64,000 nucleotides of DNA from Acidobacteriota bacterium. Lineage in GTDB: Bacteria > Acidobacteriota > Polarisedimenticolia > Gp22-AA2. Below, one piece after another: positions 3,398 to 26,780 of this stretch (the first letter of the stretch is position 1; every line of letters begins with the position of its first letter). The notes beneath the pieces were generated by a model, which was not told where the DNA came from, made no database searches, and worked only from the letters and a program-made list of their open reading frames with translations. The stretch spans positions 27,672-91,671 of the forward strand of contig QHXX01000038.1 in NCBI GenBank assembly GCA_003223135.1, given 5' to 3'. The position numbers were made by a program, and so were the translations under genes.

Positions 3398-3925
3398 CTA
3401 GGCGGGGACCAGGTCCCAGTCCCCGGCGCGCATCCGCTTCTGGACCCTTTTCTTGATGAGCCGGCGCTTCAGGGGGCTGAGGTGCTCGATGAACAGCCGG
3501 CCGTGCAGGTGGTCGATTTCGTGGTTGAAGGCGCGGGCCATGAGATCTCGCCCCTCCAGCGTGCGGATCTGGCCGTGCAGATCCATCGCTTCGATCACGC
3601 AGCGATCCGGCCGCGCCACCCGCTCCGTGAAACCGGGCAGGCTGAGGCAGCCCTCCTCGTCCGCGTGGGACCCGCTATTCTCCAGGATCCTCGGGTTGAT
3701 GAGGACGTGCACTTCCCCCGGCTTCTCACCGACGCTGAGGTCGACGACGGCGACTTGAAGCCCGACGCCCACCTGGTTGGCGGCCAGGCCGACACCCGGG
3801 GCGGCGTGCATCGTCTCGATCATGTCCCTGATGAGACGCTCGATGTCGGGTGTGATCTCGCGCACGGTCTCGGCTTCGATCGCGAGCACTTCGTGAGGGT
3901 AGCGGAGGATGGGCAGGATTGCCAT
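3398..3925 (-). CDS. def: peptide deformylase
   Basis: Motifs GVGLAANQVG, EGCLSLPG, HEIDHLHG (the three PDF signature motifs); start trimmed to MAILPILRYP. Confidence 0.95.
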   Translation of the reverse strand: MAILPILRYPHEVLAIEAETVREITPDIERLIRDMIETMHAAPGVGLAANQVGVGLQVAVVDLSVGEKPGEVHVLINPRILENSGSHADEEGCLSLPGFTERVARPDRCVIEAMDLHGQIRTLEGRDLMARAFNHEIDHLHGRLFIEHLSPLKRRLIKKRVQKRMRAGDWDLVPA

Positions 3926-3979
3926 GAGGGCGACTGATTTACCACACGCCCCACGACGCGTCAAGAAATGCCCGGTGGG

Positions 3980-6721: not shown

Positions 6722-8722
6722 TCACGGCGTCTCCTCAGGCGACGGCGGCTGGCCCAGCTTCTTGAGAAGGCTGTCCCTGACCCGCTCACGCAGCTTCTCC
6801 TTGGCCTTCTCTTTGGCGGTCTGCATCTGGCCTTGGGTATCAAGCCTGAACGTTGGGCTGGCGAGGTCGCCCTTCAGCGCGAAGTGGATGACCAGCCGGC
6901 CATTGTCGGTGAGCCCTCCCAGGCGCGCATTCTTATCCACCATGCCGCGCGTCGATTCCTCCGAAAAGCGCGCGGTGACGTCCAGGTCGAGCCTGGCGTC
7001 GAGCCCGACCCATCCCTTCCCCTCGAGGTCGAGGTCGGTGGAGTGCAGCGCCAGATCGTCGGTCCTGGCCCTGCCATCCGCAATCACCAGCGATGCCTTG
7101 AGGCTCTCGAACGGCGTGCTCTCCCGACCGATGCCCTTGCCGCCGGCGAGCTCCAGGAGCGCGGCGACCTGCTTCAGGACGCTGAAGGAGGTAATCGACC
7201 CGTCCGCCAGCTCCACGGCGCCGGTGCCGCGCGCTGTGTTGAGGATGGCGTCCATGCCCGCCCCGCTTGTGGCGAGGTCGAGGTTCCCGGCGAGTCGGCC
7301 CCGGATTAGGCCCTTCAGGGGCGGGTCGTAGGCGACGAGCAGCGGATCCACGTCGACCCCGTCCAGACGGGCCGCCAGCGCGTAGCGCGGCACGGCCCGC
7401 GAAATGTCGACGCTCGCCGATCCTTGCAGCGTCCCGCCGTAAAGAGACGTGCGCAGGTCCTTGAGCGAAAAAACGCTCTTCGCCAGCGACATCGTCGCGT
7501 TCACGTTCGACAGGTCGAACGTCTGGAAGCGGACCTGTTTGACCTCGAGACGGCCGGCGCCGCTGATCTGATCGACGATGCCGGTCGAAGCGCCGCCCGG
7601 CGCGGCCACCGCCGCTTGCGCGCCCGCCTGGGTTGCCGGCACCAGGGTGGCGATCATCTCGTTCAGGTCCAGGCGGGGCGATGTCAGCCTGAAACCGATG
7701 CGCGGCCGCATGAAGTCCTGCACTTGAAGACCGCCCTGAAGCGATGAGGACCCGGCGCGGACCTTGAAGTCCTTCCAGACGGCGCGGTCCCCATCCACCG
7801 ACAGCTCGCCCGACAAATCCTTCAACGGCAGCGCCATGCCGGCGTCCCGGTAGCTGAGGCCGTTCAGGGCGAGAGTCCCCTTGAAGCGGAGCGCCTCGGG
7901 ACGCTCGATGGGAACGTCGGCCGATCCGTCGAGGTCGATCGATCCGGCGACCTGAAGCCCGGACGGACGGGTCACGCCGAGCCACGGCAGGAGAGTCACG
8001 AAATCCTCCGCGCGGAGCCGGTGTCCCTTGGCCTGTAAGGAAAGGTGCGGTCTTTCTCCGCGCGCGTCGAGCCGCGCCTTGGCCTCCAGGATGCTGCTGC
8101 CGAGGCCCGCGGAAAGATCGAGATCGGTCGGGTTGTCCCCGCCCCAGCCGAGGATCGTCGCGTCCACGGGTGCGATGACGACCTCCGCGCGGCGGCCAGG
8201 CAGGACGGCGTCGTCGTACACGAGGACGCGGCCGGAGGTGACGCGCGCCTTGTCCACGACGACGAGGGCGCCGGCCTCGCCCGCACCCTCCGGGTGCGCC
8301 GCCGGGGCGGCCGAGGCGCGCGTGACCAGGTCGTCGAAGTTCCAGCGCCCGCGCGAATCGCGGATCAGAACCAAGGTCGGCTTGTGGAGTGCGATCGAGG
8401 TCACGCTGGCGCGGCCGCGCAGGAGACCAAGGAGACCCAGCCGCACCGACAATGACTCGGCCGACAGGGCCGTGCGATCTGGATAAGCGGCCGAGTCCGA
8501 AATCCGGATCGGCCCGCCCACCCGCAGCCCCGGCGTCGGCAGGAGGGTGAACGAGATCGTCCCCAGGCTGATCGTCCGCCCCGTGGCCTCCTGCACCCTG
8601 GCCACGATGAGCGGCCGGTAGCGGTTGACGTCCACCAGGAACGGCAGCGCGGCCGCGGCCAGGAGGACCAGACCGGCCAGAACGGCCGCGGCGACGAGCA
8701 GGCGTCGAACCACGCGGGACAC
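6722..8722 (-). CDS. AsmA-family outer-membrane assembly protein
   Basis: N-terminal anchor RVVRRLLVAAAVLAGLVLLAAAAL, AsmA N-domain (VDVNRYRPLIVARVQEATGRTISLG...), long beta-rich middle, AsmA_2-like C-terminus. GTG start with GAGGAGGGAG RBS. Confidence 0.75.
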   Translation of the reverse strand: MSRVVRRLLVAAAVLAGLVLLAAAALPFLVDVNRYRPLIVARVQEATGRTISLGTISFTLLPTPGLRVGGPIRISDSAAYPDRTALSAESLSVRLGLLGLLRGRASVTSIALHKPTLVLIRDSRGRWNFDDLVTRASAAPAAHPEGAGEAGALVVVDKARVTSGRVLVYDDAVLPGRRAEVVIAPVDATILGWGGDNPTDLDLSAGLGSSILEAKARLDARGERPHLSLQAKGHRLRAEDFVTLLPWLGVTRPSGLQVAGSIDLDGSADVPIERPEALRFKGTLALNGLSYRDAGMALPLKDLSGELSVDGDRAVWKDFKVRAGSSSLQGGLQVQDFMRPRIGFRLTSPRLDLNEMIATLVPATQAGAQAAVAAPGGASTGIVDQISGAGRLEVKQVRFQTFDLSNVNATMSLAKSVFSLKDLRTSLYGGTLQGSASVDISRAVPRYALAARLDGVDVDPLLVAYDPPLKGLIRGRLAGNLDLATSGAGMDAILNTARGTGAVELADGSITSFSVLKQVAALLELAGGKGIGRESTPFESLKASLVIADGRARTDDLALHSTDLDLEGKGWVGLDARLDLDVTARFSEESTRGMVDKNARLGGLTDNGRLVIHFALKGDLASPTFRLDTQGQMQTAKEKAKEKLRERVRDSLLKKLGQPPSPEETP

Positions 8723-11001: not shown

Positions 11002-11134
11002 GAATGGACCTCCCTGGGATCGAAGGAGCGGATCCGGTCGAAACGCCACCGGATTGTAGCGGATCCCCGGCGCCGGGGAGCGGCCGCCGGACAGGTCGGA
11101 CCCCTGTGGTAAGATTCGCACGAGGCTCCGTCCA

Positions 11135-14347: not shown

Positions 14348-14656
14348 CTACGCGCCGCTCCCGGACACGGCGGCCCCCGGTCGGGGGCGGCGGATCAGCA
14401 TCAGATTGCGCACGTAGATCAAGACCCCCGCCGATTGCCCGACGGTGATCACGATGTCCTGCCGGTACCAGAAGGCGTAGACGAACAGAATGAGACTGCC
14501 CGCAAGGCTCAGGTACCAGAACGCCACGGGGACGGTGGTCTCCTTGCGACGCTCCGAGGCGAGCCACTGCACGATGAAGCGCAGGCCGAAGAGGATCTGT
14601 CCCAGCATGCCGAACAGCACCCAGCCGTTCACGTGCAGCAGGCGTTCAAACATCAT
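14348..14656 (-). CDS. lipid-A-disaccharide synthase N-terminal (LAB_N) domain small membrane protein
   Basis: About 100 aa, three TM helices, WYRQD motif (FVYAFWYRQDIVITVGQ) typical of LAB_N proteins that partner GT2 polyprenyl-phosphate glycosyltransferases; overlaps GT2 stop by 11 nt. Confidence 0.6.
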   Translation of the reverse strand: MMFERLLHVNGWVLFGMLGQILFGLRFIVQWLASERRKETTVPVAFWYLSLAGSLILFVYAFWYRQDIVITVGQSAGVLIYVRNLMLIRRPRPGAAVSGSGA

Positions 14657-15377
14657 CCTTCACCTCGTAGCGCAGCTTGCGCCGCTTCATCCAGCGCACG
14701 GCGAGCAAGTCCATGAACGACGGCAGGAGCCGGTTGCCGATGCCGTACTTCGATTCACCGTGGCGGCGGGGCCGGTGCCCGACCGGAACTTCCATCACCC
14801 GGAACCCTTCCATCTTCAGTAGCGTCGGCAGGAAGCGGTGCAACCCGTCGTAGAGCACCAGACGCTGGAGAGCCGCCCGGCGGAACGCCTTGAGCGAGCA
14901 GCCGGTATCGGTGATTCTCTCGTCACTCAGCCGGTTGCGCACGTAGTTGGCGACCCTCGACGAAACGCGCCGCACCAGGTTGTCCTCGCGTGTCCGGCGC
15001 ACGCCCACGACCGCATCCGTACCTTTGAGCGCCTCGAGCAGACGCGGGATGTCGGTCGGGTCATTCTGGAGATCCGCGTCGAGCGTCACCACCACGTCGC
15101 CCCGCGCGCTCCTGAAGCCGGCATCCATGGCCGCCGACTGTCCGGCGTTCCTGGCGAAGGTGACGACCCGGACGCGCGGATCGGCGTCGCGCAGCCCCCG
15201 CAGCACGGTGTCGCTGCCGTCGGTCGAACCGTCGTCGACGAACAGGATCTCGTATCCGTTGCCGAAGGACTTCAAGACGTCCGTGATCTCCCTGTGGAGG
15301 ACGGGGAGGTTGTCGCGCTCGTTGTAGACGGGGATGACCAGGGAGAGCCCGACGGATCTCGTCGTCCCGCCGCTCAC
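14646..15377 (-). CDS. GT2 polyprenol-phosphate glycosyltransferase (ArnC/DPM1-like)
   Basis: LSLVIPVYNERDNL, DDGSTDGS, DAD..NDP (DXD), C-terminal TM; classic ArnC-like architecture. Confidence 0.85.
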   Translation of the reverse strand: MSGGTTRSVGLSLVIPVYNERDNLPVLHREITDVLKSFGNGYEILFVDDGSTDGSDTVLRGLRDADPRVRVVTFARNAGQSAAMDAGFRSARGDVVVTLDADLQNDPTDIPRLLEALKGTDAVVGVRRTREDNLVRRVSSRVANYVRNRLSDERITDTGCSLKAFRRAALQRLVLYDGLHRFLPTLLKMEGFRVMEVPVGHRPRRHGESKYGIGNRLLPSFMDLLAVRWMKRRKLRYEVKDDV

Positions 15378-15378
15378 G

Positions 15379-16011
15379 CTAATTGAATATCCAGAAGCGG
15401 CGGAGGCGGCTCATCAGGCGGTGCCGCGCCGACTCCGCCTCTGTCAGGAGCTCGGGCGCCAGACGCGATTTCCACTTAAGGACGGCCGCGTCGTCGATGC
15501 GCCGGAGGATCGGGAACAGGAAGCGCGCGCCCAGGCCCGCGGGGTCGAAGCAGAACGAGGCGTTGAAGTCGATGATGCACGGCCGGCCGTCTTCGGTGAT
15601 CAGGATGTTGTCGCGCTTGCGCAGGTCGATGTGGGCGACGCCGCGCGCGTGGATCTGCCCCACCAGGGTCCGGAGCCTGTCGAACATGGGAGCGGTCTCC
15701 GCGCGTTTCCGGCGGCACCAGCGGGTGATCCACTCCCCCTCGATCGGCTCCATCAGGATGCCACAGGCACCGGCCTCGCCGAAGCATCTCGGGATGCCGG
15801 CGATCCCCTGCAACCGGCGGAGGGCCCGCATCTCCCGGGCCACCTGGCGGCGGCCGAGCAGGCGCACCGGCCAGGACTTGTCGGAAAAGTCCTTCAGGAC
15901 GGCGCGGTCACCCGCGTACCCCACGCACTTGATGTCGGGTTTGGCCCAGCTCCCCTGCCGGATGACCTGGATCGTGAGCGGGGTAGCGGCGGCCTCGAGC
16001 GTCTCGGCCAT
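15379..16011 (-). CDS. small Kdo/WaaP/RIO-like protein kinase family protein (paralogue 1)
   Basis: LKDFSDKSWP (Lys motif), catalytic loop HARGVAHIDLRKRDNILI, IIDFNAS (DFG-like); 1 nt upstream of GT2 start, so it heads the kinase-GT2-LAB_N operon. Confidence 0.55.
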   Translation of the reverse strand: MAETLEAAATPLTIQVIRQGSWAKPDIKCVGYAGDRAVLKDFSDKSWPVRLLGRRQVAREMRALRRLQGIAGIPRCFGEAGACGILMEPIEGEWITRWCRRKRAETAPMFDRLRTLVGQIHARGVAHIDLRKRDNILITEDGRPCIIDFNASFCFDPAGLGARFLFPILRRIDDAAVLKWKSRLAPELLTEAESARHRLMSRLRRFWIFN

Positions 16012-16085
16012 CGGCGGTCCTGTGCTATTCTCCGGCGTCAGAAAAGGACGTTCATCTTACCATAGCCGCTCACGGGGCACCGGTC

Positions 16086-16790
16086 ATGGCCTTTCGCCGA
16101 GAGCACGCCGGGTCGACGGCCCGGGCCCACGCCGACGCGACGATTGTGCTGGCTCGTGAACGCCTCGCTTCTCTCCCGCGCCGCAGACTGCACGGCGGAC
16201 GGAATTTCACCAAGGCGGTCGTTGACCTGGTCGAGATCGATGGGCGCACCATCATCCTGAAGGACATCGCCTCCCGTCCCTGGCCCGTGCGCCTGCTCCT
16301 CGGTCCGTGGCAGCTCGACCGCGAGGGGCGCGCCTATCGCGCACTGGCCGGGGTACGCGGCACCCCCGCCTTCGTGGCCAGGATCGACCGGCAGGCGATC
16401 GCGCTCGAGTACGTCCCGGGCCGGAGCCTGGCCTCGTACCGGCGGGGGGAGCTGAAGGCCGACTTCTTCGACCGCCTGGACCGCCTCCTGGACGATATCC
16501 ACGCGCGCGGCGTGGCGCACGGCGATCTGCACCGGCACGACGTCCTGGCCGGCCCCGGCGGCGAACCGTACCTGGTCGATTTCTCCACCTCGATGGTCGC
16601 GCCTCACGGGGCCGGGGCGCTGGCGCGATTTCTGTTCCGCCAGATGTGCCGGGCCGACCGTCGCTCCGCCGCCAAGCTCAGACAGCGGTTCCTCCCCGGC
16701 AGCCGCGCGCCCGTGCCGGAGCGCTCCGGTCTGTACCGCGTCGGCGGCTGGGCGCGGCGTATCGCCGATCGGTTCCGGCGTTCGCGGTAG
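16086..16790 (+). CDS. small Kdo/WaaP/RIO-like kinase-family protein (paralogue 2, catalytic Asn replaced)
   Basis: Clear paralogue of 15379..16011 (LKDIASRPWPVRLL; HARGVAHGDLHRHDVLAG; LVDFSTS) but the Asn of HxDLxxxN is Val; divergently transcribed from paralogue 1 across a 74-bp spacer. Confidence 0.55.
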   Translation: MAFRREHAGSTARAHADATIVLARERLASLPRRRLHGGRNFTKAVVDLVEIDGRTIILKDIASRPWPVRLLLGPWQLDREGRAYRALAGVRGTPAFVARIDRQAIALEYVPGRSLASYRRGELKADFFDRLDRLLDDIHARGVAHGDLHRHDVLAGPGGEPYLVDFSTSMVAPHGAGALARFLFRQMCRADRRSAAKLRQRFLPGSRAPVPERSGLYRVGGWARRIADRFRRSR

Positions 16791-16887
16791 GAGCCTGTCC
16801 GGGTTCCAGGAGCGGACGAATTCGCGCACCGCCGCTGTTATAATCCCGTCGGGCTTCATGGACCGACCGCGGGAGAGACGGTATTCC

Positions 16888-17343
16888 ATGATCAAGGACG
16901 TCCGCACGAAGATCCTCAAGGTCATCCCGGACGAGCGCGGCCGTCTCATGGAGACCTTGCGCTCCGACGACGACATGTTCACCAAGTTCGGCCAGGCGTA
17001 CATCACCACCGCCTATCCCGGCGTCGTGAAGGGATGGCACTATCACAAGATCCAGGTTGACAACTTCATCGGCGTGAAGGGGATGTTCAAGGTCGTCCTG
17101 TACGACACTCGCGAGGGCTCGCCGACACGCGGCGAAATCAACGAGTTCTTCCTGGGCGTGCACAATCCGATGCTCGTGCAGATCCCGCGGCTGGTCCTGC
17201 ACGGCTTCAAGGCGATCGGGACGGAAGAGGCGATCATGCTCAATCTGCCGACGGAACTCTACCGTCACGACGCCCCCGACGAGTACCGGGTCGACCCCCA
17301 CGACCCCGACGTCCCCTACGACTGGGCGCTGAAGGAGAGATAG
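16888..17343 (+). CDS. RmlC-family cupin (dTDP-4-dehydrorhamnose 3,5-epimerase-like or 3,4-ketoisomerase-like), short form
   Basis: GWHYHK, SPTRGE, IPRLVLHGFKAIG cupin motifs; ATG at 16888 has GGGAGAG RBS; ATG at 16858 lies only about 12 nt after a TATAAT hexamer (about 16839-16844) and is less likely. Confidence 0.6.
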   Translation: MIKDVRTKILKVIPDERGRLMETLRSDDDMFTKFGQAYITTAYPGVVKGWHYHKIQVDNFIGVKGMFKVVLYDTREGSPTRGEINEFFLGVHNPMLVQIPRLVLHGFKAIGTEEAIMLNLPTELYRHDAPDEYRVDPHDPDVPYDWALKER

Positions 17344-17345
17344 AC

Positions 17346-18089
17346 ATGAAGGGAGTCATTCTGGCGGGGGGCCTGGGGACGCGACTGCATCCTCTGACCA
17401 AGATCACCAACAAGCACCTCCTGCCGATCTACGATCGGCCGATGATCCACTACCCGCTCATGACTCTGGTGGATGCAGGCGTCCGCGACATCCTCATCGT
17501 CACCGGGGGAAATCACGCCGGCGAGTTCCTGCGCCTCCTGGGGAACGGCCGCGAGTTCGGCCTCGACGACATCGCGTACACGTACCAGGAGGGCGAGGGC
17601 GGGATCGCCGACGCCCTGTCCCTGGCAAGCCACTTCGCGGACGGCGAAAAGATCGTGGTGATCCTGGGCGACAACATCATCGAGGGAGACATCCGGAAGC
17701 CGGTGGATGCGTTCAGGGCGCAGCCGAAGGGGGCGCGCCTGCTCCTCAAGAAGGTGCCCGACCCCGGCCGCTTCGGCGTGCCGGAGCTGCGTGACGGGCG
17801 AATCGTTTCGATCGAGGAGAAGCCAAAGAGCCCGAAGTCGGACTACGCCGTCATCGGCATCTACATGTACGACGCCAGGGTGTTCGACATCGTCTCGACG
17901 CTCGAGCCGTCGGCCCGCGGCGAGCTCGAGATCACCGACGTCAACAATGCCTATCTGGAACGCGGGGAGCTGGAGCACGACATCCTCGAAGGGTGGTGGA
18001 CCGATGCCGGCACGTTCGAGTCGCTGTTCCGCGCCAACCAGCTCGTGCGCGAGAAGATGATCGAAAAGCTGACGGCGCGGATCGGCTGA
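17346..18089 (+). CDS. rmlA: glucose-1-phosphate thymidylyltransferase-type sugar nucleotidyltransferase (short RmlA form)
   Basis: MKGVILAGGLGTRLHPLT (GxGTRL), KPMI..P, nucleotidyltransferase fold; tight spacing to the RmlC-like gene and rmlB. Confidence 0.8.
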   Translation: MKGVILAGGLGTRLHPLTKITNKHLLPIYDRPMIHYPLMTLVDAGVRDILIVTGGNHAGEFLRLLGNGREFGLDDIAYTYQEGEGGIADALSLASHFADGEKIVVILGDNIIEGDIRKPVDAFRAQPKGARLLLKKVPDPGRFGVPELRDGRIVSIEEKPKSPKSDYAVIGIYMYDARVFDIVSTLEPSARGELEITDVNNAYLERGELEHDILEGWWTDAGTFESLFRANQLVREKMIEKLTARIG

Positions 18090-18093
18090 CCCG

Positions 18094-19095
18094 ATGACGC
18101 GCGTTCTCGTAACCGGGGGAGCCGGGTTCATCGGCTCCCACTACGTCCACCACGCCCTCGCCGCCCATCCCGACTGGCACATCACGGTCCTCGACAAGCT
18201 GACCTATGCCGGCAACCTCGCGAATCTCGAGGACGTGAAGGACCATCCCCGCTACCGCTTCCTGTGCGGCGACATCGCGTCGCGACCGGACGTGGAGAAG
18301 GCAACGGAAGATGGGATGGACTGTATCTTCAACTTCGCGGCCGAGACGCATGTGGACCGATCCATCGGCCAGCCCGAGGGGTTCATCCGCACCGACATCT
18401 ACGGCGCCTACACGCTCCTGGAAGTCGCGCGACAGCGCAAAGCGAAGGCGTTCGTGCAGATCTCGACCGACGAGGTGTACGGGAGCGTCGCGCAGGGGCA
18501 GAGCCGCGAGACCGACGCCCTGATGCCGAGCAATCCCTATTCCGCGAGCAAGGCGGCCGCCGACCGCCTGGCCTATTCCTATTTCGCGACGTACGGGCTG
18601 CCCGTCTATATCAGCCGCGCATCGAACAATTTCGGTCCGCGCCAGTATCCCGAGAAGGTCATTCCGCTGTTCGTCACCAACGCCCTCGTGAACGAGCCGC
18701 TCCCCCTGTACGGCGACGGCGAGAACGTCCGCGACTGGCTGTTCGTGACCGATCACTGCATGGCCCTCGACGTGATGCTCGAGCGCGGCGCACCCGGCGA
18801 GGTCTACAACATCGGCGCGGGCAACGAGCGCCGCAACATCGAGATCACCCGGCTGATCCTCGATCGCCTGAACAAGCCCACAACCCTCGTCCGCCCTGTG
18901 CAGGACCGGCCGGGGCACGATCGGCGCTACGCCCTCGACTGCTCCAAGATCCGGGCGCTCGGCTGGGCCCCGCGCGTGACGTTCGAACAGGGGCTGGAGC
19001 AGACGATCGCCTGGTACACGGAGAACCGCTCCTGGTGGCTGCCGATCAAGACGGGGGAGTACCTCGAGTACTACCGGAATCACTACCGCCTCTGA
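18094..19095 (+). CDS. rmlB: dTDP-glucose 4,6-dehydratase
   Basis: TGGAGFIGS Rossmann, STDEVYG, YSASKAA (YxxxK), strong full-length RmlB similarity. Confidence 0.95.
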   Translation: MTRVLVTGGAGFIGSHYVHHALAAHPDWHITVLDKLTYAGNLANLEDVKDHPRYRFLCGDIASRPDVEKATEDGMDCIFNFAAETHVDRSIGQPEGFIRTDIYGAYTLLEVARQRKAKAFVQISTDEVYGSVAQGQSRETDALMPSNPYSASKAAADRLAYSYFATYGLPVYISRASNNFGPRQYPEKVIPLFVTNALVNEPLPLYGDGENVRDWLFVTDHCMALDVMLERGAPGEVYNIGAGNERRNIEITRLILDRLNKPTTLVRPVQDRPGHDRRYALDCSKIRALGWAPRVTFEQGLEQTIAWYTENRSWWLPIKTGEYLEYYRNHYRL

Positions 19096-19765
19096 GCGAT
19101 TCCTCCACGTCGAGAGAGCGCAGGACACCGTTGGTCCCCAGCGTGAAAGTCATCTCGAGGAGCGGACGGCCGGGAAGCGACGTGTCCCAGTAGAACAGGT
19201 GACCCCGGAAGCCCTCCTCGACCTCGTCCGTCTCGATGCGCGACCATGCGTCCCGGGCGTCCAGGCTCTCCAAAAGGCGCTGCATCTCGGCTTCGCTTCC
19301 GCGCGCCCCTTCGAGGGCCACGACGTCCAGGGGCGTCAGGACGAGCTCGGGGAGAAGTCCCTCCAGACGCAGATCGCAGCCGATCATCTCGCGCGCGCTC
19401 GCGCGATCGAGGGACAGGCCGTCCCGCGCCACGGCCGCGCCGATCCGCCTTCGGGTCTCCTCCGCCGGCTGGGGAGGAACCCGCCCGAGGTTCGCCAGGT
19501 TCTCCGGCCACAGGCCGCGGACGCCGACGATCACCCAGGTCTCCGCGCAGGCGTTCGTGCAGACAACGTACAACCTCAAGTGTTTGAGGGGCGGGCAGGG
19601 AATCCTCTCGACCTCCACCCCGCCGATCCGCCCGGGATAGCGAGCGGAGAGCGCGGCGAGGCCGCGGCTGAGACCCTCCGGCGGATCGACGAGTGCCATG
19701 CCCCACAAGGCCACGATGGCCAGGAGCGCCATGAGGGCTCCGGCCAGCACACCGGTCCACCTCAC
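19046..19765 (-). CDS. hypothetical membrane-anchored protein, translationally coupled to upstream GT39/ArnT-like gene
   Basis: N-terminal TM LAGALMALLAIVALWGMAL; GTG start overlapping the ArnT-like TGA (GTGA); 3' end overlaps rmlB stop convergently by about 50 nt (true stop uncertain). Confidence 0.4.
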   Translation of the reverse strand: MRWTGVLAGALMALLAIVALWGMALVDPPEGLSRGLAALSARYPGRIGGVEVERIPCPPLKHLRLYVVCTNACAETWVIVGVRGLWPENLANLGRVPPQPAEETRRRIGAAVARDGLSLDRASAREMIGCDLRLEGLLPELVLTPLDVVALEGARGSEAEMQRLLESLDARDAWSRIETDEVEEGFRGHLFYWDTSLPGRPLLEMTFTLGTNGVLRSLDVEESLRGGSDSGSTRGTPPS

Positions 19766-21390
19766 CGCGCCGCGTCCTTCGACAACAGATGGTATGGCTG
19801 TCCCGCCACCGTGCCGCGGAGGTCTTCCACGACGCCGGGGAGCGCGGACAGATCGACCGCGCGCAGCAGGTCGTCCTCGATCAGAAGCTGCCGGGGACCG
19901 GGTCGCGAGAGATACTCGACGATGGCGGGCGGCGTGTCGGCCTCCTCGGCGAACCGGCCCGTGTAGAACACCCAGGCGTCACGCTTTTCTTCCGTCGTGG
20001 CGAAACCCGCCCGGGGATCCAGGCGCGTCTTCACGTCCGAGGCGAAGTGGCTGATGTTCTGGCGCCGGTTCACCCACGGCAGAAGGGCCTCCGTCGCCAC
20101 CAGGACCACGACGACGAGCGATCCCAGAAGACAGATCAAGGCACCCCCCGTGCGGCCCTTCGCGTGCAGGACCGCCGCCGCGACTGCCCCGGAAGCGAAG
20201 GCGAGCCCGATGGACGCTGCCACGAGGGTGAGCTCCGGATAGCGGTGGCGCGCCGCAAGCGGCAGTCCCGTCGCGAGGAGAAGCGCCGCCGCGGCCCACG
20301 CGATGAGGGGAGCGCGCAGGCGCCGCGCGCCGCCGGAGGAGACGTCCGACTCCCAGGCGCGGGCCAGGAGGCGCGCCACCAGGATCGCCGCCGCCGGGTA
20401 GAGCGGAATGATGTACACCCCGCGCTTGCCCGTCGAGAATGAGAAGAACAGGAGGATCGACGCGATCCAGGTCAGAAGGAAAAGCGCGGCGCTCCTGCGC
20501 TCGCGCTCCTCGCGCGACAGCGCCTGCGCGATGCCCCACGGCAGGAAGACGATCCAGGGGAAGAAGCCGACCGGGAAGCGCCACAGGTAATACCAGACGG
20601 GATGCGTCGCGTTCCACGCCCCGACGTAGCGCTCGACGTTCTGATGCATCAGGACCCAGAGCGCGTACCGGGGTCCCAGCCGCCAGGCGAACAGGCCGAA
20701 CCAGGACAGGGTGATCAGGAGGAAGAGGGCGATGCCGATCGGCGAAACGATGCGCCGAGCCGACCGGAAGTCGCGCTCGATGAGCGCCGACGGAAGCACC
20801 GCGAGGATCGGCAGGATCAGGCCCACGGGTCCCTTGGCCAGGGTCGCCAGCGCCATCATGACCCAGGCGAGGGCGATGCGGGTGCGCCCTCCGCCCTGCT
20901 CCGCGCGGCCCCGCCAGAGCAGCACGACGGCCGACAGGACGAAAAGGTTCAGCGTCATGTCGATCGCGGCCCAGCGGCCGCGCTCGAGGATCTGCAGGGA
21001 CGTGGCGAACACGAGCGCCGCGAGGAGACCGGTCCGCCGGTCGTAGAGCCAGGCACCCAGACGCTCGATCAGCAGGATTGCGAGAACCGCGGAGACCGCG
21101 GAAGGCAGCCGCGCCGCCCATTCGTCGATTCCCCCGAGGAGCCTCCCGAATCCATTGATCGCCCAGAAGAACAGCGGTGGCTTGTCGGTGTAAAGATGAT
21201 TATTGAGCGACAGCACCGAGTAATCTCCGCGGGCCCACATCTCCTTCGCCACGAGCGCGAAGCGCGGCTCGTCGGGCGGCCACAGGTCGTGAGAGCCGAG
21301 CCGCCAGAAGAACAGCACGAAGCCGGCGGCCAGGAGGAGCGCGAGACGGCGCCACGGACCGCGCGCGTTGACAGTGCCGGGTCCGTCCAT
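19762..21390 (-). CDS. GT39/ArnT-like polyprenyl-phosphate-sugar dependent glycosyltransferase (PMT_2 family), paralogue 1
   Basis: Multi-TM N-terminal domain with conserved DEPRFALVAKEM, YTDKPPLFFW, LAKGPVG motifs typical of ArnT/PMT-type C-glycosyltransferases; soluble C-terminal domain. Confidence 0.7.
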   Translation of the reverse strand: MDGPGTVNARGPWRRLALLLAAGFVLFFWRLGSHDLWPPDEPRFALVAKEMWARGDYSVLSLNNHLYTDKPPLFFWAINGFGRLLGGIDEWAARLPSAVSAVLAILLIERLGAWLYDRRTGLLAALVFATSLQILERGRWAAIDMTLNLFVLSAVVLLWRGRAEQGGGRTRIALAWVMMALATLAKGPVGLILPILAVLPSALIERDFRSARRIVSPIGIALFLLITLSWFGLFAWRLGPRYALWVLMHQNVERYVGAWNATHPVWYYLWRFPVGFFPWIVFLPWGIAQALSREERERRSAALFLLTWIASILLFFSFSTGKRGVYIIPLYPAAAILVARLLARAWESDVSSGGARRLRAPLIAWAAAALLLATGLPLAARHRYPELTLVAASIGLAFASGAVAAAVLHAKGRTGGALICLLGSLVVVVLVATEALLPWVNRRQNISHFASDVKTRLDPRAGFATTEEKRDAWVFYTGRFAEEADTPPAIVEYLSRPGPRQLLIEDDLLRAVDLSALPGVVEDLRGTVAGQPYHLLSKDAAR

Positions 21391-21441
21391 CTAGGATGCC
21401 CCCTCCCTGACGCGAGCGGACGCCGTTCCCGGAGACGACAG

Positions 21442-22002
21442 GTGACTGAGCGCAGCAGGACCCTCGGCCGCATTCGTCTCGCCGCCGTTTACGTCTTCAT
21501 CGCCGTCCTGATCGACGTGTCCCGCCCCACGCGGGCGTCTCTTCTGGCCGGAGCGACCCTCACACTCATCGGCGAGGCGATCCGGATCTGGGCGGCGGGA
21601 CACCTGACCAAGTCGGTCCGCCTCGTCACCTCCGGGCCGTACGCCTACACGCAGAACCCGCTGTATCTCGGGCGCCTGCTGATCCTCACCGGCCTCGCGA
21701 TCGCCGCGCGAACGGAAGGGTACCTGAACCTTCTCGCCCTTGCGCTGGGGTACGCCGTCTTCTTCTTTTATTACATCCCGCGCAAGCTGCGGGTGGAAGG
21801 AGGGCGTCTCGCCGGCCTGCACGGAGAGGCGTTCGAACAGTACCACCGGAGCGTGCCGATCCTGGTCCCGCGGCTCCGCCGCTATCCCGGCGGCCGGGAG
21901 GGATGGTCTTTCCGCCTCATCGTGGCGAACCAGGAGCCCCTCGTCCTGACCGGCATCGTGCTGGTGCTCGCCCTGCTGGCGTGGAAGACAGCGCATCCCT
22001 GA
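21442..22002 (+). CDS. isoprenylcysteine carboxyl methyltransferase / phospholipid methyltransferase-family membrane methyltransferase
   Basis: VTSGPYAYTQNPLYLG (ICMT/PEMT signature), 4-5 TM helices; GTG start with GGAG RBS; 51-bp divergent spacer to ArnT-like gene 1. Confidence 0.7.
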   Translation: MTERSRTLGRIRLAAVYVFIAVLIDVSRPTRASLLAGATLTLIGEAIRIWAAGHLTKSVRLVTSGPYAYTQNPLYLGRLLILTGLAIAARTEGYLNLLALALGYAVFFFYYIPRKLRVEGGRLAGLHGEAFEQYHRSVPILVPRLRRYPGGREGWSFRLIVANQEPLVLTGIVLVLALLAWKTAHP

Positions 22003-22040: not shown

Positions 22041-23090
22041 TCATCCCGCAGCCGCCCGGCCGGCCACTCCCGCCACGAGGTCCGCCAGTCGCGCGCCGAC
22101 GGCCGAGGCCTCATAATGCTCCTCGACCAGCGCCCGGCCGCGCTCTCCCATCTCCAGGGCGAGCCGCGGATCGGCGACGAGGCGGCGGAGGCGATCGGCC
22201 CACTCGTCCGTCGTGCGCGCGAAGAACCCCGTCTCGTTCTCCCGCACCAGGTCGCGGTTCGCGCCGACCGGCGAGCAGACGACCGGCAGCCCCGCGGCCT
22301 GGTACATGAGGATCTTCAGCCCGCACTTCCCCTGGGAGAACGCCGTGTCGTCGAGCGGCATCACCCCGAGGTCGAGGTCCAGGAGGGCCGAGGGCTCGTC
22401 CTCCAGGCTCCACGTGATCGTCTCCGTCGGCACGCCCGGCAGATCGACAAACTCGCTGCAGATCTGGACGAAGATCCCGCCCGTCTCCGCGAGCACGCGT
22501 CGCAGCGGCTCCGCCAGGGCGGGCAGGTACCGCAGACTCGGGCGGCTCCCGACCCAGCCGATGCGCGGCGCCCTCCCCCCGGCACGCCGCGCCTCGCGCG
22601 CCCTCCGCAGCGCACCGTCCGGAAAGAGACGCAGATCGACGGCGGTCGGAAGCACCGTCACGTCCCGGGCGAAGCGCGCTGCGTATTCGGCGAGGAAGCG
22701 GTTACCGGCGATCACCCTGTGGCTGCGCCGGAGCACAGCCGCGAGCCGCCTGCGGCGCGAGGCGGCGCGTTTCTCCGCCCGCTCCGCCCCGAAACGCTCG
22801 CGCTCGTCGGGGCTGACCGTGAACACGGCGTCGTCGAGATCGAACAGGATCGGCGCGGGGCCGAGCAGGAGCGGCAGCTTCCAGCGCGCGAACAGCTTCT
22901 TCTGGACCAGGACGGCGTGGGAGCGGCGTGCGCGGCGCGCCAGGTCCGCCAGATCGGCCGCCCGGCGTCTTTTCGCCACGAAGACGTCGGCGTCGATGCC
23001 GCGCCCCTTCAGGAGAGCCAGGTGCTGCAGGACCCGCAGCCGACTGCTCGGATGTTCGACCCCGCCGTTGAGGATACACAGAACGCGCAA
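22041..23090 (-). CDS. GT4-family (GT1-fold) glycosyltransferase
   Basis: C-terminal GT-B motifs (LDLGVMPL..., E-x7-E region ENETGFFA), N-terminal LRVLCILNGG; preferred start TTG at 23090 with GGGAGG RBS; ORF-track ATG at 23174 would add 28 residues. Confidence 0.75.
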   Translation of the reverse strand: MRVLCILNGGVEHPSSRLRVLQHLALLKGRGIDADVFVAKRRRAADLADLARRARRSHAVLVQKKLFARWKLPLLLGPAPILFDLDDAVFTVSPDERERFGAERAEKRAASRRRRLAAVLRRSHRVIAGNRFLAEYAARFARDVTVLPTAVDLRLFPDGALRRAREARRAGGRAPRIGWVGSRPSLRYLPALAEPLRRVLAETGGIFVQICSEFVDLPGVPTETITWSLEDEPSALLDLDLGVMPLDDTAFSQGKCGLKILMYQAAGLPVVCSPVGANRDLVRENETGFFARTTDEWADRLRRLVADPRLALEMGERGRALVEEHYEASAVGARLADLVAGVAGRAAAG

Positions 23091-23202
23091 CCTACCTCCC
23101 GGTGACGCGCACCACGCCCGGCGCGGGGTCGATGGCGACCCTCCCGAGAGCGTCCCGCCATCCGCGGTCCCCATGATTATGAGCCGACCGGCGGGAGCCC
23201 GG

Positions 23203-24855
23203 TCACGGCCCCCCCATGCCCGGCATCGATCGTTCTTCCACGGTGCCGGCCCCGCCCGCCACGAGGAGCATCGTGCGGTGTCCGACCTGCTGTCGGTCCA
23301 GGACCTCCAGGTTCGGGTCGAGAGCCCGCCGCTCCGCCTCGTAGACGTCGTCCTCGATGAGACAGAAAGAGCGCCTCCCCGAGGAAAAATACTGTCTGAG
23401 CTCCTCGCGGTCGCGCAGGACCGGGATGAAGCGCCCGGTGTAGTAGACGTACGTCGGATGGTAGTCCGGATACATGGCCAGCGGCCGGTCGCCGACGACC
23501 CCCAAGATTCGATGGCAGAAGGCGCGGGCGGACTTGTGAGGGTCGAGGGCCGGCAGGACGGCGATCGGGATCACCAGGTAGGTGACCACAAGCCCGGTGC
23601 TGAAGGCCGCCAGGGCGGCTCCGCCCCCGCGGCGCCGGTGCACGACGAGGGCCAGGAGCGTCCCCAGACACGCCACCGACGCCAGGAGGGCCGCCGGACC
23701 CAGCAGGTCGGGGGCCTGGACCCTGAGCTTCGGCAGCACCACGATCGCACCGCCGAGCGCCAGCAGGAGCGAGGTCCCGAGCAACCAGGAGATCGGGCGG
23801 TCGGCCGGCGATGGTTCCCAGCCGAGGAGGGCCAGGTCCCACACGCGCGCCACGAGAAGGGCGAGAAGCGGAAGGAGCGGCAGGAGGTACACGCCGCGTT
23901 TCTCGACCGACAGGCCGAACACGGTGAAGGTGACCAGGATCCATGAATAGACGTAGGCGTTGTCCCTGTCGGGCCGCGCGCCGCGCCGGGGAAGGGTCTG
24001 CCAGAGGGCCGCGGGGAGCAGGAGCACCCAGGGGAAGAATTCCGCCGCCAGGCTGATCAGGACGTGGTAGAACGGATGCGCGTGGTGCTCGCCGCGCGTG
24101 AAGCGGTGCGCCAGACGGAGGAGAAGCGCCTCCAGCGGGAACGCTTCGCCGGTGCTGCGGTAGGCGGCGACCCACAGGCCGGCCGGAACGAGGGCCAGCG
24201 GCAGGCCCCAGGCCAGCCCCATGCGCCTCACGAAACCGAGGTCGCGCGACGAGGCCAGGAACACGATGACGGACAGCAGGGGAATCAGGAGACCGTGCGG
24301 TCCCTTGGTGAGATTCGCCAGACCGATCGATAGATAGAAGACCGCCAGGAAACGCCGATCCCCCCCGGCACGGTAGGCCTGGTGGAACGCCACGCACGAG
24401 AGCAGAAGCCAGAACGTCCACAGCATGTCGGGATGGGCCCAGCGTGCCTCCATGAAATAGCCGTAGGTCGTCGCCAGAATGACGGCCGCGAGCGCCCCGG
24501 TGCGCCGGCCGAACAGACCACGGCCCAGGTAAAAGACCACGAACAGGCCGAGGAGGGCCGCCAGGCTCGACGGCAGGCGAAGCGCGAATTCCGTGGGCCT
24601 CCCCGCCGGCAGCGAGGCGAGCGCCCCCAGCCAGGGGTACAGAGGCGGCTTCTCGAAATAGAGCTGCTGGTTGTCGCGCAGGACGGCCCATGACCCGGTC
24701 AGATGGATCTCGCGTACGACTTCCCCGACGTCCGGCTCGTCGGGGGCCCAGAGGTCGTGCCCGCCCAGGCCGGTGGCGAAGAGCGCAACACCGAGAAGGA
24801 GGAGCAGCAGGAGGCAGTTCCGGTCGCTCCGGAAGATGCGGATCGCCAGGGACAT
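23203..24855 (-). CDS. GT39/ArnT-like glycosyltransferase (PMT_2 family), paralogue 2
   Basis: Same architecture and motifs as 19762..21390 (DEPDVGEVVREI, YFEKPPLYPW, LTKGPHG); multi-TM plus C-terminal soluble domain. Confidence 0.7.
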   Translation of the reverse strand: MSLAIRIFRSDRNCLLLLLLLGVALFATGLGGHDLWAPDEPDVGEVVREIHLTGSWAVLRDNQQLYFEKPPLYPWLGALASLPAGRPTEFALRLPSSLAALLGLFVVFYLGRGLFGRRTGALAAVILATTYGYFMEARWAHPDMLWTFWLLLSCVAFHQAYRAGGDRRFLAVFYLSIGLANLTKGPHGLLIPLLSVIVFLASSRDLGFVRRMGLAWGLPLALVPAGLWVAAYRSTGEAFPLEALLLRLAHRFTRGEHHAHPFYHVLISLAAEFFPWVLLLPAALWQTLPRRGARPDRDNAYVYSWILVTFTVFGLSVEKRGVYLLPLLPLLALLVARVWDLALLGWEPSPADRPISWLLGTSLLLALGGAIVVLPKLRVQAPDLLGPAALLASVACLGTLLALVVHRRRGGGAALAAFSTGLVVTYLVIPIAVLPALDPHKSARAFCHRILGVVGDRPLAMYPDYHPTYVYYTGRFIPVLRDREELRQYFSSGRRSFCLIEDDVYEAERRALDPNLEVLDRQQVGHRTMLLVAGGAGTVEERSMPGMGGP

Positions 24856-24911: not shown

Positions 24912-26780
24912 TCAGAGGACCGAGGCCTCCGGTGCCGGCCGATCGTCGCGGAATTGCAGCGCGTACAGACGCGCGTAGTGGCCCTTGCGCGCCAGAAGTT
25001 CCGGGTGCGTGCCGCGCTCGACCAGGGAACCCTCGTCGAGGACCAGGATGACATCGGCCCGGCGTACGGTCGAGAGGCGATGGGCAATGACGAACACGGT
25101 CCGCCCGGTCATCAAGTTCTGGAGGGCGCCCTGCACCTCGGCTTCCGATTCCATGTCCAGAGACGACGTCGCCTCGTCCAGGATGAGAATCGGGGAGTCC
25201 TTCAAGATGGCCCGGGCGATCGAGATCCTCTGCCTCTGCCCCAGTGACAGCCGGTGGCCGGCCTCCCCGAGCGTCGTGTCGAATCCGCGCGGCAGCGCCT
25301 CGATGAACTGCTCGGCGTGGGCGGCGCGCGCCGCCGCCGTCACCCTGTCCAACGGCACGTCGGCCCGGCCGTAGGCGATGTTGTTGCGCACGGTGTCGTC
25401 AAACAGAATCACCTCCTGCGTGACGATCCCGATCTGCGCGCGAAGCGACGCCAGCGACACTTCGCGGACGTCCCGGCCGTCGATGAGCACCGCCCCCTTG
25501 TTCACGTCGTAGAATCGCGGCAGCAGGTTCACCAGGGTCGACTTGCCGGCCCCGCTGGAACCGACCAGGGCGACGACCGTGCCGGCGGGAACGACGAGGT
25601 CGACGCCCCGAAGGACCGGCGCCTGGCCGTAGGCGAAGTGCACGCCCCGGAACTCGATCCGGTCGCGGAACGGCGGCAGATCCAGGGCCGCCGGTTTTTC
25701 GCGGATGCGGTTCGGCAGGTCCATAAGCTGGAAGACGCGCTGGGCCGCCGCCATCGCCTGCTGCACCTCGTTGTTGATCTTCACAAGGTTCTTGATCGAT
25801 CCGTAGATCATGAACAGAGCGGCGAAGAAGGTGAAGACATCGGCGGGGGAGAGCTTCCCCGCGTGGATGCGCTGCAGGGCGTAGGCCAGGAGGATGGCGG
25901 CCCCGATGGCGCCGACCAGCTCCAGCACGGGGGCGGTCAGCGACACCAGCCGCGCCGCCCGTTTCTCGGCATTCTGGATACGGTCGAGGGCCCTGCGGAA
26001 GCGCCCGATCTCGAACTCCTCCATCCCGAAGCCCTGCACGATGCGCGTTCCGGTGATCCCCTCCTTCATCACGTCGACCGCCTCGCCCATCTTCTCCTGG
26101 CTCCGCCGGCTGGTGGCCTTGAGGCGCGCCCCGAAGCGCGCCACCGGATAGACGAGCAGGGGCAGGAGGATCAGGCAGAAGGAGGCGAGCCGCGCGTTGA
26201 GGTAGAACAGCCAGGCGGCCTGCCCGATGACGATCGCCCCGAGACGGAACACCTCGGCGAGGTCGCCGGACACGAGTCTCTGGAGCCGCCCCACGTCGTT
26301 CACCACGCGGGAGATCAGGCTGCCCGTCGGGTGATCCGAGAAGAACGCCAGCGATTGTCTCTGGACCCGCGCGTACAGGTCGGCGCGGAGATCACGCACC
26401 GCCTGCAGGCCCGCCGAGCGCGTCAGGTACGAGGCGAGGTAGGTGAAGATCCCCTTGAGGACGAACAGCACGACGATCAGAACCGCGATCAGGATGATCG
26501 TGCCCTTCGTCCCGCCGCCCAGCCAGCGGGCGAACGGCAGGCCGGGCGCATCCGTCCCGCCGGCGCCGAGGAGCTTCCTGAGGTGATCGAACGGCCGGGT
26601 CTTGCCGGCGGCGGCGCCCGGGAGCGTCACGGCACCCGGGAAGAGCAGCTCCAGGATCGGCTGGATGAGGACCAGGAGGCCCACATAGACGAGGGAGATG
26701 AGAACGGAGCACACGGCGGCCGCGATCAGGCGGCCGAGGTAGGGCCGCACGTAGCGCAGCAGCCGGCGAAAATCCTTCAT
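24912..26780 (-). CDS. msbA: ABC transporter ATP-binding/permease, MsbA-like lipid A/lipid exporter
   Basis: 6-TM exporter domain plus NBD with Walker A GSSGAGKST, signature LSLGQRQR, Walker B ILILDEATS; GAGGA RBS. Confidence 0.85.
   Translation of the reverse strand: MKDFRRLLRYVRPYLGRLIAAAVCSVLISLVYVGLLVLIQPILELLFPGAVTLPGAAAGKTRPFDHLRKLLGAGGTDAPGLPFARWLGGGTKGTIILIAVLIVVLFVLKGIFTYLASYLTRSAGLQAVRDLRADLYARVQRQSLAFFSDHPTGSLISRVVNDVGRLQRLVSGDLAEVFRLGAIVIGQAAWLFYLNARLASFCLILLPLLVYPVARFGARLKATSRRSQEKMGEAVDVMKEGITGTRIVQGFGMEEFEIGRFRRALDRIQNAEKRAARLVSLTAPVLELVGAIGAAILLAYALQRIHAGKLSPADVFTFFAALFMIYGSIKNLVKINNEVQQAMAAAQRVFQLMDLPNRIREKPAALDLPPFRDRIEFRGVHFAYGQAPVLRGVDLVVPAGTVVALVGSSGAGKSTLVNLLPRFYDVNKGAVLIDGRDVREVSLASLRAQIGIVTQEVILFDDTVRNNIAYGRADVPLDRVTAAARAAHAEQFIEALPRGFDTTLGEAGHRLSLGQRQRISIARAILKDSPILILDEATSSLDMESEAEVQGALQNLMTGRTVFVIAHRLSTVRRADVILVLDEGSLVERGTHPELLARKGHYARLYALQFRDDRPAPEASVL

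Follow-up and report, generated by a model that had tools for sequence, protein, structure and literature searches.

A conserved divergent pair of mini-kinase genes beside envelope-lipid genes in Polarisedimenticolia

Introduction

[quoted passage not shown] Here, we analyse two small head-to-head genes, which we name kinA and kinB, in a 64,000-nucleotide stretch of an Acidobacteriota genome of the lineage Polarisedimenticolia (contig QHXX01000038.1, positions 27,672 to 91,671; hereafter the window), and compare them with these and other systems.

Compared with the RIO1/RIO2 kinases, such as A. fulgidus Rio2 (1tqi) and Rio1 (1zp9), kinA and kinB carry DFN or DFS in place of the IDxxQ metal loop, lack the N-terminal helix/winged helix and the flexible loop, score below the Pfam gathering threshold, and stand among envelope-lipid enzymes instead of in a context of ribosome biogenesis. 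The Kdo/WaaP family (WaaP, WapP, WapQ, KdkA and InaA; PF06293) is alike in consisting of small basic kinases of similar size; ArnC-, ArnT-, LmtA- and MsbA-like genes surround the pair, and some orthologues carry the NCBI name 'lipopolysaccharide kinase InaA family'. However, the scores against this family lie just under the gathering score or below it, and the catalytic loops differ, with Asn six residues after the catalytic Asp in kinA (D+6) and Asp at D+5 in kinB. The ColRS operon, in which a membrane-associated methyltransferase is co-transcribed with a small LPS-kinase-like gene, mirrors, as far as its description alone allows the comparison, both the kinase-methyltransferase module reported below and the content of the cluster, but it has one kinase where the window has a divergent pair. 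The kinase domains of CurKC (7wj6) and of the LanKC class III/IV lanthipeptide synthetases belong to multidomain enzymes that modify peptides and exceed 800 aa in length, whereas kinA and kinB encode stand-alone proteins with no lyase/cyclase domains or precursor peptides near them. Finally, the Arn/Gtr systems (ArnC-ArnE/F-ArnT; pathway logic as in PMC4402001) are paralleled here by an ArnC-like family 2 glycosyltransferase (GT2), a small membrane protein of the LAB_N family and ArnT-like transferases, although the known systems have no kinase, the GT2 here lacks the transmembrane (TM) helices of ArnC, LAB_N is not ArnE/F or GtrA, and the sugar donor is probably a deoxythymidine diphosphate (dTDP)-6-deoxyhexose.

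Results and Discussion

Catalytic loops of kinA and kinB

Both proteins of the pair keep the β3 Lys, the αC Glu, the HxD Asp and the DFG Asp of a kinase, as does the joint alignment of their families, and kinB, which the earlier note had taken for a pseudokinase, has an invariant Asp on the site of the catalytic-loop Asn. The pair and its loops are laid out as follows.

15379 to 16011, minus strand: kinA, mini-kinase of the long-loop (A) type, 210 aa
15607 to 15633, minus strand: kinA catalytic loop, H127-I-D-L-R-K-R-D-N135 (sequence; gapped Rio2/StkP alignment)
16012 to 16085, no strand: divergent gap, 74 bp
16086 to 16790, plus strand: kinB, mini-kinase of the short-loop (B) type, 234 aa
16518 to 16541, plus strand: kinB catalytic loop, H145-G-D-L-H-R-H-D152 (sequence; ungapped alignments to Rio2, STK16, StkP and CurKC)

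The key residues are K40, E60, H127-x-D129, N135 and D148-F-N in kinA, and K59, E80, H145-G-D147, D152 and D165-F-S in kinB. The earlier note had read kinB as having Val in place of the Mg-coordinating Asn. Aligned to solved kinases, either as a single sequence or as a 28-sequence family profile with the same outcome, kinB matches Rio2, STK16, StkP and CurKC without a gap (GVAHGDLHRHDVLAGP against Rio2 GIVHGDLSQYNVLVSE, STK16 HRDLKPTNILL and StkP HRDLKPQNILL), which places Asp152 on the canonical Asn site and Val153 on the hydrophobic residue that normally comes next after the Asn. The kinA loop exceeds the canonical HRDLKxxN by one residue and needs a one-residue gap after D-L in the alignments to Rio2 and StkP, upon which Asn135 falls on the canonical Asn. 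Neither protein has the Asn at D+5, kinA by this insertion and kinB by Asp152, and both residues are invariant. Judged from these alignments, the Asn-to-Val reading is an artefact, although the note was right that kinB has no catalytic-loop Asn; the Asn-equivalent site lies elsewhere than it was placed, and both genes would be predicted to be active. The case cautions that pairwise alignments of paralogues can misplace catalytic residues and suggest false pseudoenzymes.

The loops were then classified among the top 147 hits of a profile search over 1.84 billion cluster representatives, 112 of which were classifiable. The kinA-type long loop H-x-D-L-x-x-x-x-N is the majority state (88/112), a canonical-length loop with Asn (e.g. 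HGDLRRKNIL) occurs in 19, and the kinB-type HGDLH[RH][RH]D[VI] in five, with a few more missed by the pattern. The long-loop and short-loop clades are deeply separated in a neighbour-joining tree (distance-based and rough), and the Asp-bearing sequences are nested among Asn-bearing short-loop sequences. Because a protein at the syntenic kinB position of another locus (P0399 in L037; locus numbers are our own) retains the Asn and reads HGDLHHRNILL, the change in the kinB lineage is best read from sequence as an Asn-to-Asp substitution at the canonical site; the Asp152 codon GAC (16539-16541) differs from the Asn codon AAC by a single transition. A recent tandem duplication as the origin of the pair was rejected, as the two genes belong to the deeply separated clades.

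Conservation was counted over 118 kinA orthologues and 114 kinB orthologues, the latter of about 50-99% identity. In kinB, Lys59, Glu80, His145, Asp147, Asp152, Asp165 (the DFG equivalent) and Thr168 are invariant (114/114), and the αF-like Asp191 is found in 113 of 114; the equivalents in kinA (K40, E60, H127, D129, D134, N135, D148 and D173) are conserved as well, with one core residue at 117/118. A pseudokinase is defined by sequence through the loss of at least one of the VAIK Lys, the HRD Asp and the DFG Asp (PMC13519141), and in kinB all three motifs are present and invariant. Additionally, the ratio of nonsynonymous to synonymous substitution rates (Nei-Gojobori, six close loci) is 0.13-0.27 for kinA, 0.17-0.38 for kinB and 0.14-0.25 for the adjacent GT2 gene, so that kinB is under purifying selection, somewhat faster but clearly constrained. 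The invariant carboxylate at a metal-ligand site, a residue that can bind metal, argues for a kept, possibly altered, metal site and not for decay. The invariant catalytic residues of kinB, the Asp on the Asn site, the syntenic orthologue with Asn and the selection on the gene thus speak against its being a pseudokinase.

Some kinB genes vary in the loop: those of L018 and L021 read DLNRSDV, with Asn for His at D+2, and those of L027, L028 and L029 (about 7190-7855 in L027) have Gln for the HxD His (GVAQGDLHHRD). The 'DLHK pseudokinase' family (PMC12599244) was considered and set aside, as it consists of unrelated, helicase-linked proteobacterial proteins.

Fold and family of the two proteins

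The two open reading frames, divergent and with start codons separated by the 74-bp gap, stand where the earlier note had placed them, and both follow the pattern of real genes in G+C content by codon position (third > first > second; the sequence is 68% G+C). Their products share 37% identity over 169 aa, and because the BLASTP E-value is 1e-25 the paralogy proposed for them goes beyond chance. The shared blocks HARGVAH.DL, HIDLRKRDN, HGDLHRHDV and DF(N/S) are found as quoted in the note, but the LKD block only nearly so, being LKDFSDKSWPVRLL in kinA and LKDIASRPWPVRLL in kinB. Both mini-kinases are very basic (isoelectric points 10.3 and 11.5), and kinA ends in RRxWIFN, strictly conserved in the orthologue alignment.

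AlphaFold2 models built from the family alignments are confident (predicted local distance difference test scores of 87.7 and 89.7) and support the protein-kinase-like fold that had been suggested for both genes. The predicted structures are bilobal and would represent a minimal kinase, with an N-lobe sheet, the αC helix, the catalytic and metal loops, and after these two C-terminal helices and nothing more; neither model shows an activation segment/APE motif or a GHI subdomain, and in place of the RIO-specific N-terminal elements the models open on N-lobe strands after a short disordered tail. The structural matches scored as follows, with one value per model.

A. fulgidus Rio2: 17.4 and 17.8
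Rio1: 16.0 and 16.3
CurKC lanthipeptide-synthetase kinase domain: 16.4 and 15.2
Bud32: 13.7 and 13.3
WaaP: 13.5 for one model, and not among the matches listed for the second

Neither protein reached the curated Pfam cut-off of Pkinase or the gathering score of RIO1 (PF01163; kinA 20.2 and kinB 15.9 against 22), and the best NCBIfam models, PRK12274 (66.8 and 46.7 bits against a cut-off of 372) and PRK09188 (52.9 and 32.3 bits against 490), were also missed. By these sequence measures, kinA and kinB lie inside the protein-kinase-like superfamily but outside every named family in it. Their own family of mini-kinases is large and uncharacterised, with 542 cluster representatives (50% identity) at E<=1e-30 and 2035 at E<=1e-10, and is distinguished by the two loop designs, the Asn one residue late or the Asp for Asn. 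Annotation of its members goes no further than hypothetical, 'Bud32', 'RIO-like' or 'InaA family', and ten outgroup representatives were all named 'hypothetical protein' in the cluster look-up.

Conservation of the divergent pair

Among 185,579 species genomes scanned, 30 loci were found, all from metagenome-assembled genomes of Acidobacteriota 'gp22'/Candidatus Polarisedimenticolia, although a few of the bins are labelled otherwise. In 31 of 31 orthologous loci (29 of the 30 scan loci and two further contigs), kinB divergently adjoins kinA, down to 43-50% identity (tblastn), so that both copies are kept throughout. Another 80 loci came from scanning metagenomes with the kinB family. Linkage was counted after six-frame annotation of all loci with hidden Markov models and was restricted to genes flanked by at least 700 bp on each side: all 39 kinB-type genes have a divergent kinA-type partner, and 26 of them are followed by rml genes, while among 66 long-loop kinases a GT2 gene, with LAB_N behind it, comes next in 44 and a divergent short-loop partner is present in 44.

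The pair is also kept amid unrelated surroundings, as in L034 and L036 (both with bactofilin and RodZ in place of VWA-ProS) and in L062, L067, L068 and L097, and therefore its conservation is more than local synteny. The sequences point to an ancient association of the two subfamilies.

Several single loci deserve mention. L010, L017, L023, L024 and L026 are fully syntenic but carry the labels Binatia, Cryosericum, Verrucomicrobiia, Dongiaceae and Patescibacteria; every one is a SMAG bin, and mis-binning or mislabelling is the likely reason. The metagenome contig L038 (Ga0209235_1000416) has a kinB 100% identical to that of the window and the same gene order, and it probably comes from the same population. 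In L032, a kinase with a kinB-like N-lobe adjoins a cupredoxin/cytochrome c gene and may, by sequence, be an intermediate or outgroup form. A public gene call of 460 aa on the plus strand of L001 (6603-7985), with no Pfam hit, was rejected as a typical wrong-strand call in high-GC DNA, since tblastn puts kinB at 7329-7961 on the minus strand.

A recurrent kinase-methyltransferase module

Across the wider kinase family, the partner that recurs most strongly is a PEMT/ICMT-like methyltransferase. Other lineages contribute more than 25 additional loci in which kinase and PEMT genes are same-strand neighbours, often overlapping, in two fixed arrangements, a kinase with DLHQRNIL followed by PEMT, or PEMT followed by a kinase with DLKRKDNL; Pfam confirms the PEMT assignment in the outgroups. 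A single mini-kinase that adjoins or overlaps a same-strand gene of this type was seen in many unrelated metagenome lineages (L094-L096, L102-L112 and L117; L082-L116; L033).

In the kinB lineage itself, PEMT lies directly downstream of the kinB-type gene in L027-29, L034, L037, L062, L064, L067 and L068. In L036 (6001-7209), the 402-aa protein P0380 is a kinB-type kinase (HGDLHRRDVI) fused at its C-terminal end to PEMT (30.8 bits in Pfam, which exceeds the gathering threshold), and its gene is divergent from a kinA-like gene, after which comes GT2. In the clade of the window, gene order indicates that PEMT has been displaced by a few kb through rmlCAB, a 239-aa protein of no known family and a PMT_2 gene. 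The kinase-methyltransferase module seems to be undescribed; the repeated linkage of the kinase family to LmtA-like methyltransferases, and among Acidobacteriota to a glycosylation set of the ArnC/ArnT type, may be relevant to the methyltransferase-InaA operon that is so far unexplained in the ColRS regulon of Pseudomonas.

Genes around the pair in the window

Both strings of genes that the earlier note had described are present: kinA heads the GT2/LAB_N string, with the GT2 start 1 nt past the kinA stop and LAB_N overlapping GT2, and kinB heads the rml string, in which the rmlC-like gene begins 67 nt later and is followed by rmlA and rmlB.

14348 to 14656, minus strand: LAB_N small membrane protein, 102 aa, three TM segments, 11-nt overlap with GT2 (Pfam LAB_N 7.4e-30)
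14646 to 15377, minus strand: ArnC-like GT2, 243 aa, GTG start (Pfam Glycos_transf_2 1.7e-35)
16858 to 17343, plus strand: small RmlC-like cupin, epimerase/isomerase (Pfam dTDP_sugar_isom 1.1e-14; TIGR01221 44.7 bits, well below cut-off)
17346 to 18089, plus strand: RmlA-like glucose-1-phosphate thymidylyltransferase (Pfam NTP_transferase 2.3e-55; TIGR01207 251.9 bits)
18094 to 19095, plus strand: RmlB, dTDP-glucose 4,6-dehydratase (TIGR01181 450.6 bits, exceeding the cut-off of 365.1)
19046 to 19765, minus strand: conserved 239-aa protein with an N-terminal hydrophobic segment (no Pfam/NCBIfam hit)
19762 to 21390, minus strand: ArnT-like (PMT_2) polyprenyl-phosphate-sugar-dependent transferase (Pfam PMT_2, PMT)
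21436 to 22002, plus strand, start approximate: PEMT/ICMT-like membrane methyltransferase (Pfam PEMT 26.9 bits, gathering threshold 25)
22041 to 23174, minus strand: GT1/GT4-type glycosyltransferase (Pfam Glyco_trans_1_4)
23203 to 24855, minus strand: second ArnT-like PMT_2 transferase (Pfam PMT_2 58.6 bits)
24912 to 26780, minus strand: MsbA-like lipid A ABC exporter (TIGR02203 559.9 bits against a cut-off of 602; Pfam ABC_membrane and ABC_tran)

The GT2 matches ArnC in the PDB (1.3e-45) over ArnC residues 10-225 of 322-327, the catalytic domain without the C-terminal TM helices, and scores 163.7 bits against the ArnC model PRK10714, below the equivalog cut-off of 529; the first ArnT-like protein likewise scores 162.5 bits against PRK13279, below the cut-off of 567. 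The scores thus point to homologues of ArnC and ArnT and not to orthologues. LAB_N may replace the two C-terminal TM helices that the GT2 lacks, and the split GT2 and LAB_N architecture is conserved in nearly all loci. The gene of the 239-aa protein overlaps the PMT_2 stop codon by 4 nt, is translationally coupled to it and is syntenic in most loci, and its product is a candidate accessory subunit of the ArnT-like enzyme; the two PMT_2 proteins are of 542 and 550 aa. The best named relative of the PEMT protein is LmtA_Leptospira, a lipid A 1-phosphate methyltransferase (41.4 bits, far below the cut-off).

By analogy with the roles of ArnC, ArnE/F, ArnT, MsbA and LmtA summarised in PMC4402001, the gene set is as would be expected for remodelling of lipid A or another LPS-type lipid. 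In L002 (2117-4048), an MsbA-like gene is accompanied by an additional PMT_2 gene and by two phosphatase genes of the PAP2 (LpxE/LpxF-like) type, which reinforces the lipid A-remodelling character of the cluster. Searches of the literature for LAB_N/PF07578, bacterial RioB and Polarisedimenticolia yielded nothing that concerns these genes.

Proposed function of the pair and its alternatives

Based on the findings above, the reading that we prefer, though with somewhat less than even confidence, is that both genes encode active, non-redundant kinases that would act on an envelope lipid or glycolipid, the class of substrate being what we infer from the neighbouring genes. The fold, the catalytic residues, the conservation, the selection and the gene linkage were all observed. 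kinA and kinB would represent two anciently separated subfamilies of RIO/Kdo-like mini-kinases of about 200-250 aa, both most likely ATP-dependent phosphotransferases working at the membrane, in which the Asn-to-Asp change in kinB would have altered a metal ligand without removing it. Their non-redundancy is suggested by their partners, since kinA is translationally coupled to the ArnC-like GT2 and LAB_N and the kinB lineage appears to have been ancestrally coupled, and once fused, to PEMT, with the rml genes presumably inserted after kinB in the clade of the window. The kinases could install phosphates that the neighbouring enzymes then methylate, through the PEMT/LmtA-like partner, or glycosylate, through the route of the ArnC-like GT2, LAB_N and ArnT-like proteins with a donor derived from dTDP-6-deoxyhexose, in a scheme akin to that of the multiple WaaP/WapP/WapQ-type LPS kinases. 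Enzymatic activity and the order of the steps are the conjectural parts of this scheme.

A number of results weigh against this preferred reading. The gathering score of Kdo/WaaP/InaA (PF06293) was missed by both proteins (kinA 20.8 and kinB 14.4 against 21.3), although some orthologues and outgroups pass it (the L109 kinase with 26.1 bits, P0399, and precomputed hits), and when the profiles of both families were compared with E. coli InaA by hhalign the E-values, 0.021 and 0.34, were non-significant, a single-sequence template being a weak test. The adjacency within Polarisedimenticolia could in large part be general synteny, as the neighbouring VWA-ProS-PCMT genes are also conserved. L018 and L021 hold the kinase pair without GT2/LAB_N, kinA there abutting a VWA gene. 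Members of the family also occur in unrelated surroundings: in L035 (6001-6741), a short-loop Asn-type member (DLRRKNIL) stands between leuA-like and leuC/leuD-like genes, which have nothing to do with the envelope, and in L032 a radical SAM/SPASM gene precedes a kinA-type kinase that stands alone (3414-4091; HLDLRKRDNILV). The Asn-to-Asp change, moreover, could shift kinB toward an ATPase or a binding-only role.

Among the alternatives, the one that survives best, unlikely as we think it, holds that the two proteins are protein Ser/Thr kinases or RIO-like ATPases whose targets, phosphorylated by them or controlled in their conformation, would be the membrane enzymes next to them (GT2/LAB_N, PEMT, ArnT-like) or other proteins. 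In sequence and structure, the two indeed match RIO1/2, the CurKC/LanKC kinase domain and the Hanks-type StkP and PknB best, Pkinase is the best Pfam hit for kinA, and the basic D+2 residue of the kinA loop (DLRKRDN) would resemble that of Ser/Thr kinases; yet with two helices following the DFG motif the proteins have neither the activation segment/APE motif nor the GHI substrate-binding subdomain, sensor domains are absent, and the genes are coupled or fused to lipid-handling membrane enzymes and not to signalling modules.

A more specific form of the preferred reading, which we regard as rather improbable in its full extent, is an undescribed pathway of envelope-lipid decoration on lipid A, the LPS core or another glycolipid. 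A phosphate placed by kinB would be O-methylated by PEMT, as is proposed because of the recurrent kinase-PEMT operons and the fusion, and a phosphate placed by kinA would be glycosylated with a 6-deoxyhexose via GT2, LAB_N as a carrier flippase and the ArnT-like route. If this were true, kinase-PEMT would be a widespread two-enzyme unit that phosphorylates and then methylates in many bacterial lineages, and in either form the proposal offers concrete testable hypotheses on the envelope lipid chemistry of abundant uncultured soil Acidobacteriota.

It is very doubtful that the two are soluble small-molecule kinases, kinB being an anomeric sugar-1-kinase that feeds the RmlA-like enzyme and kinA a polyprenol or sugar kinase that supplies GT2. 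AmgK-MurU provides the precedent of a sugar-1-kinase feeding a nucleotidyltransferase, the RmlA-like protein also resembles MurU (84 bits), rmlC, rmlA and rmlB follow kinB in the 26 of 39 loci counted above, and kinB exceeds the gathering score of APH (PF01636; 25.5 against 23.2 bits), for which kinA has no hit. However, the match to APH is limited to common motifs of the C-lobe (residues 89-173; the motif ends in Asp), the rml linkage occurs in one subclade, with PEMT or nothing after kinB elsewhere, glucose-1-phosphate for RmlA normally comes from central metabolism, and the known sugar kinases of this fold, at about 330 aa, are much larger than kinA and kinB.

The kinase/pseudokinase pair of the earlier note, in which a dead kinB regulates or scaffolds kinA and both control the divergent operons, is equally hard to credit: the absence of the loop Asn, the His for Lys/Arg at D+2, an evolution about 1.5-2 times faster than that of kinA, the Gln for the HxD His in three loci and the strict co-occurrence (39/39), which is also compatible with an obligate heteromer, speak for it, but the three residues by which pseudokinases are defined (β3 Lys, HRD Asp and DFG Asp; PMC13519141) are invariant in kinB, the Asn site holds one fixed Asp and no random residue, orthologues have Asn at the same genomic position, B-type or short-loop relatives stand alone with PEMT and no A-type partner, which indicates a function of their own, and neither protein has a regulatory domain. 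For co-regulation of the two operons by the pair we likewise found no support, as DNA-binding and signalling domains are lacking, the genes are enzyme-like and coupled to membrane enzymes, and the linkage to rml does not reach beyond a subclade.

The intergenic region

In the 74-bp gap, a promoter/terminator scan found no sigma-70 -35/-10 pair and no terminator, Rfam had no match over 15900-16200, and the inverted repeats, which cover both start codons, are weak (77-79% complementary). Alignment of 19 orthologous intergenic regions reveals two conserved blocks.

16054 to 16064, minus strand: TATGGTAAGAT, extended -10-like element (TGnTAAGAT) for kinA
16018 to 16029, minus strand: ATAGCACAGGA(G/C), given also as ATAGCACAGGAG, kinA leader and Shine-Dalgarno sequence

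In the first block, the columns of the core T.TGGTAA.AT are at least 80% conserved, with 1-nt variants in a few loci, and the flanks are variable; together, the two blocks form a pattern that occurs nowhere else in the window, where chance would give 0 copies. The reverse complement of the second block, TGTGCTAT, could serve as a -10 element of kinB. Since only about 20 nt separate the first block from the kinB ATG, the kinB leader must overlap the putative kinA promoter; the putative promoters of kinA and kinB probably overlap each other as well, and such overlap could couple the expression of the two genes.

A near-identical copy of the first block, TGTGGTAAGAT, stands 20 nt upstream of the pcm gene, and therefore the block looks like an ordinary -10 element and not a special operator. 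The motif T(A/G)TGGTAAGAT, found at 16054-16064 upstream of kinA and at 11105-11115 upstream of the pcm (PCMT) start at 11135, is probably the extended -10 consensus of the organism.

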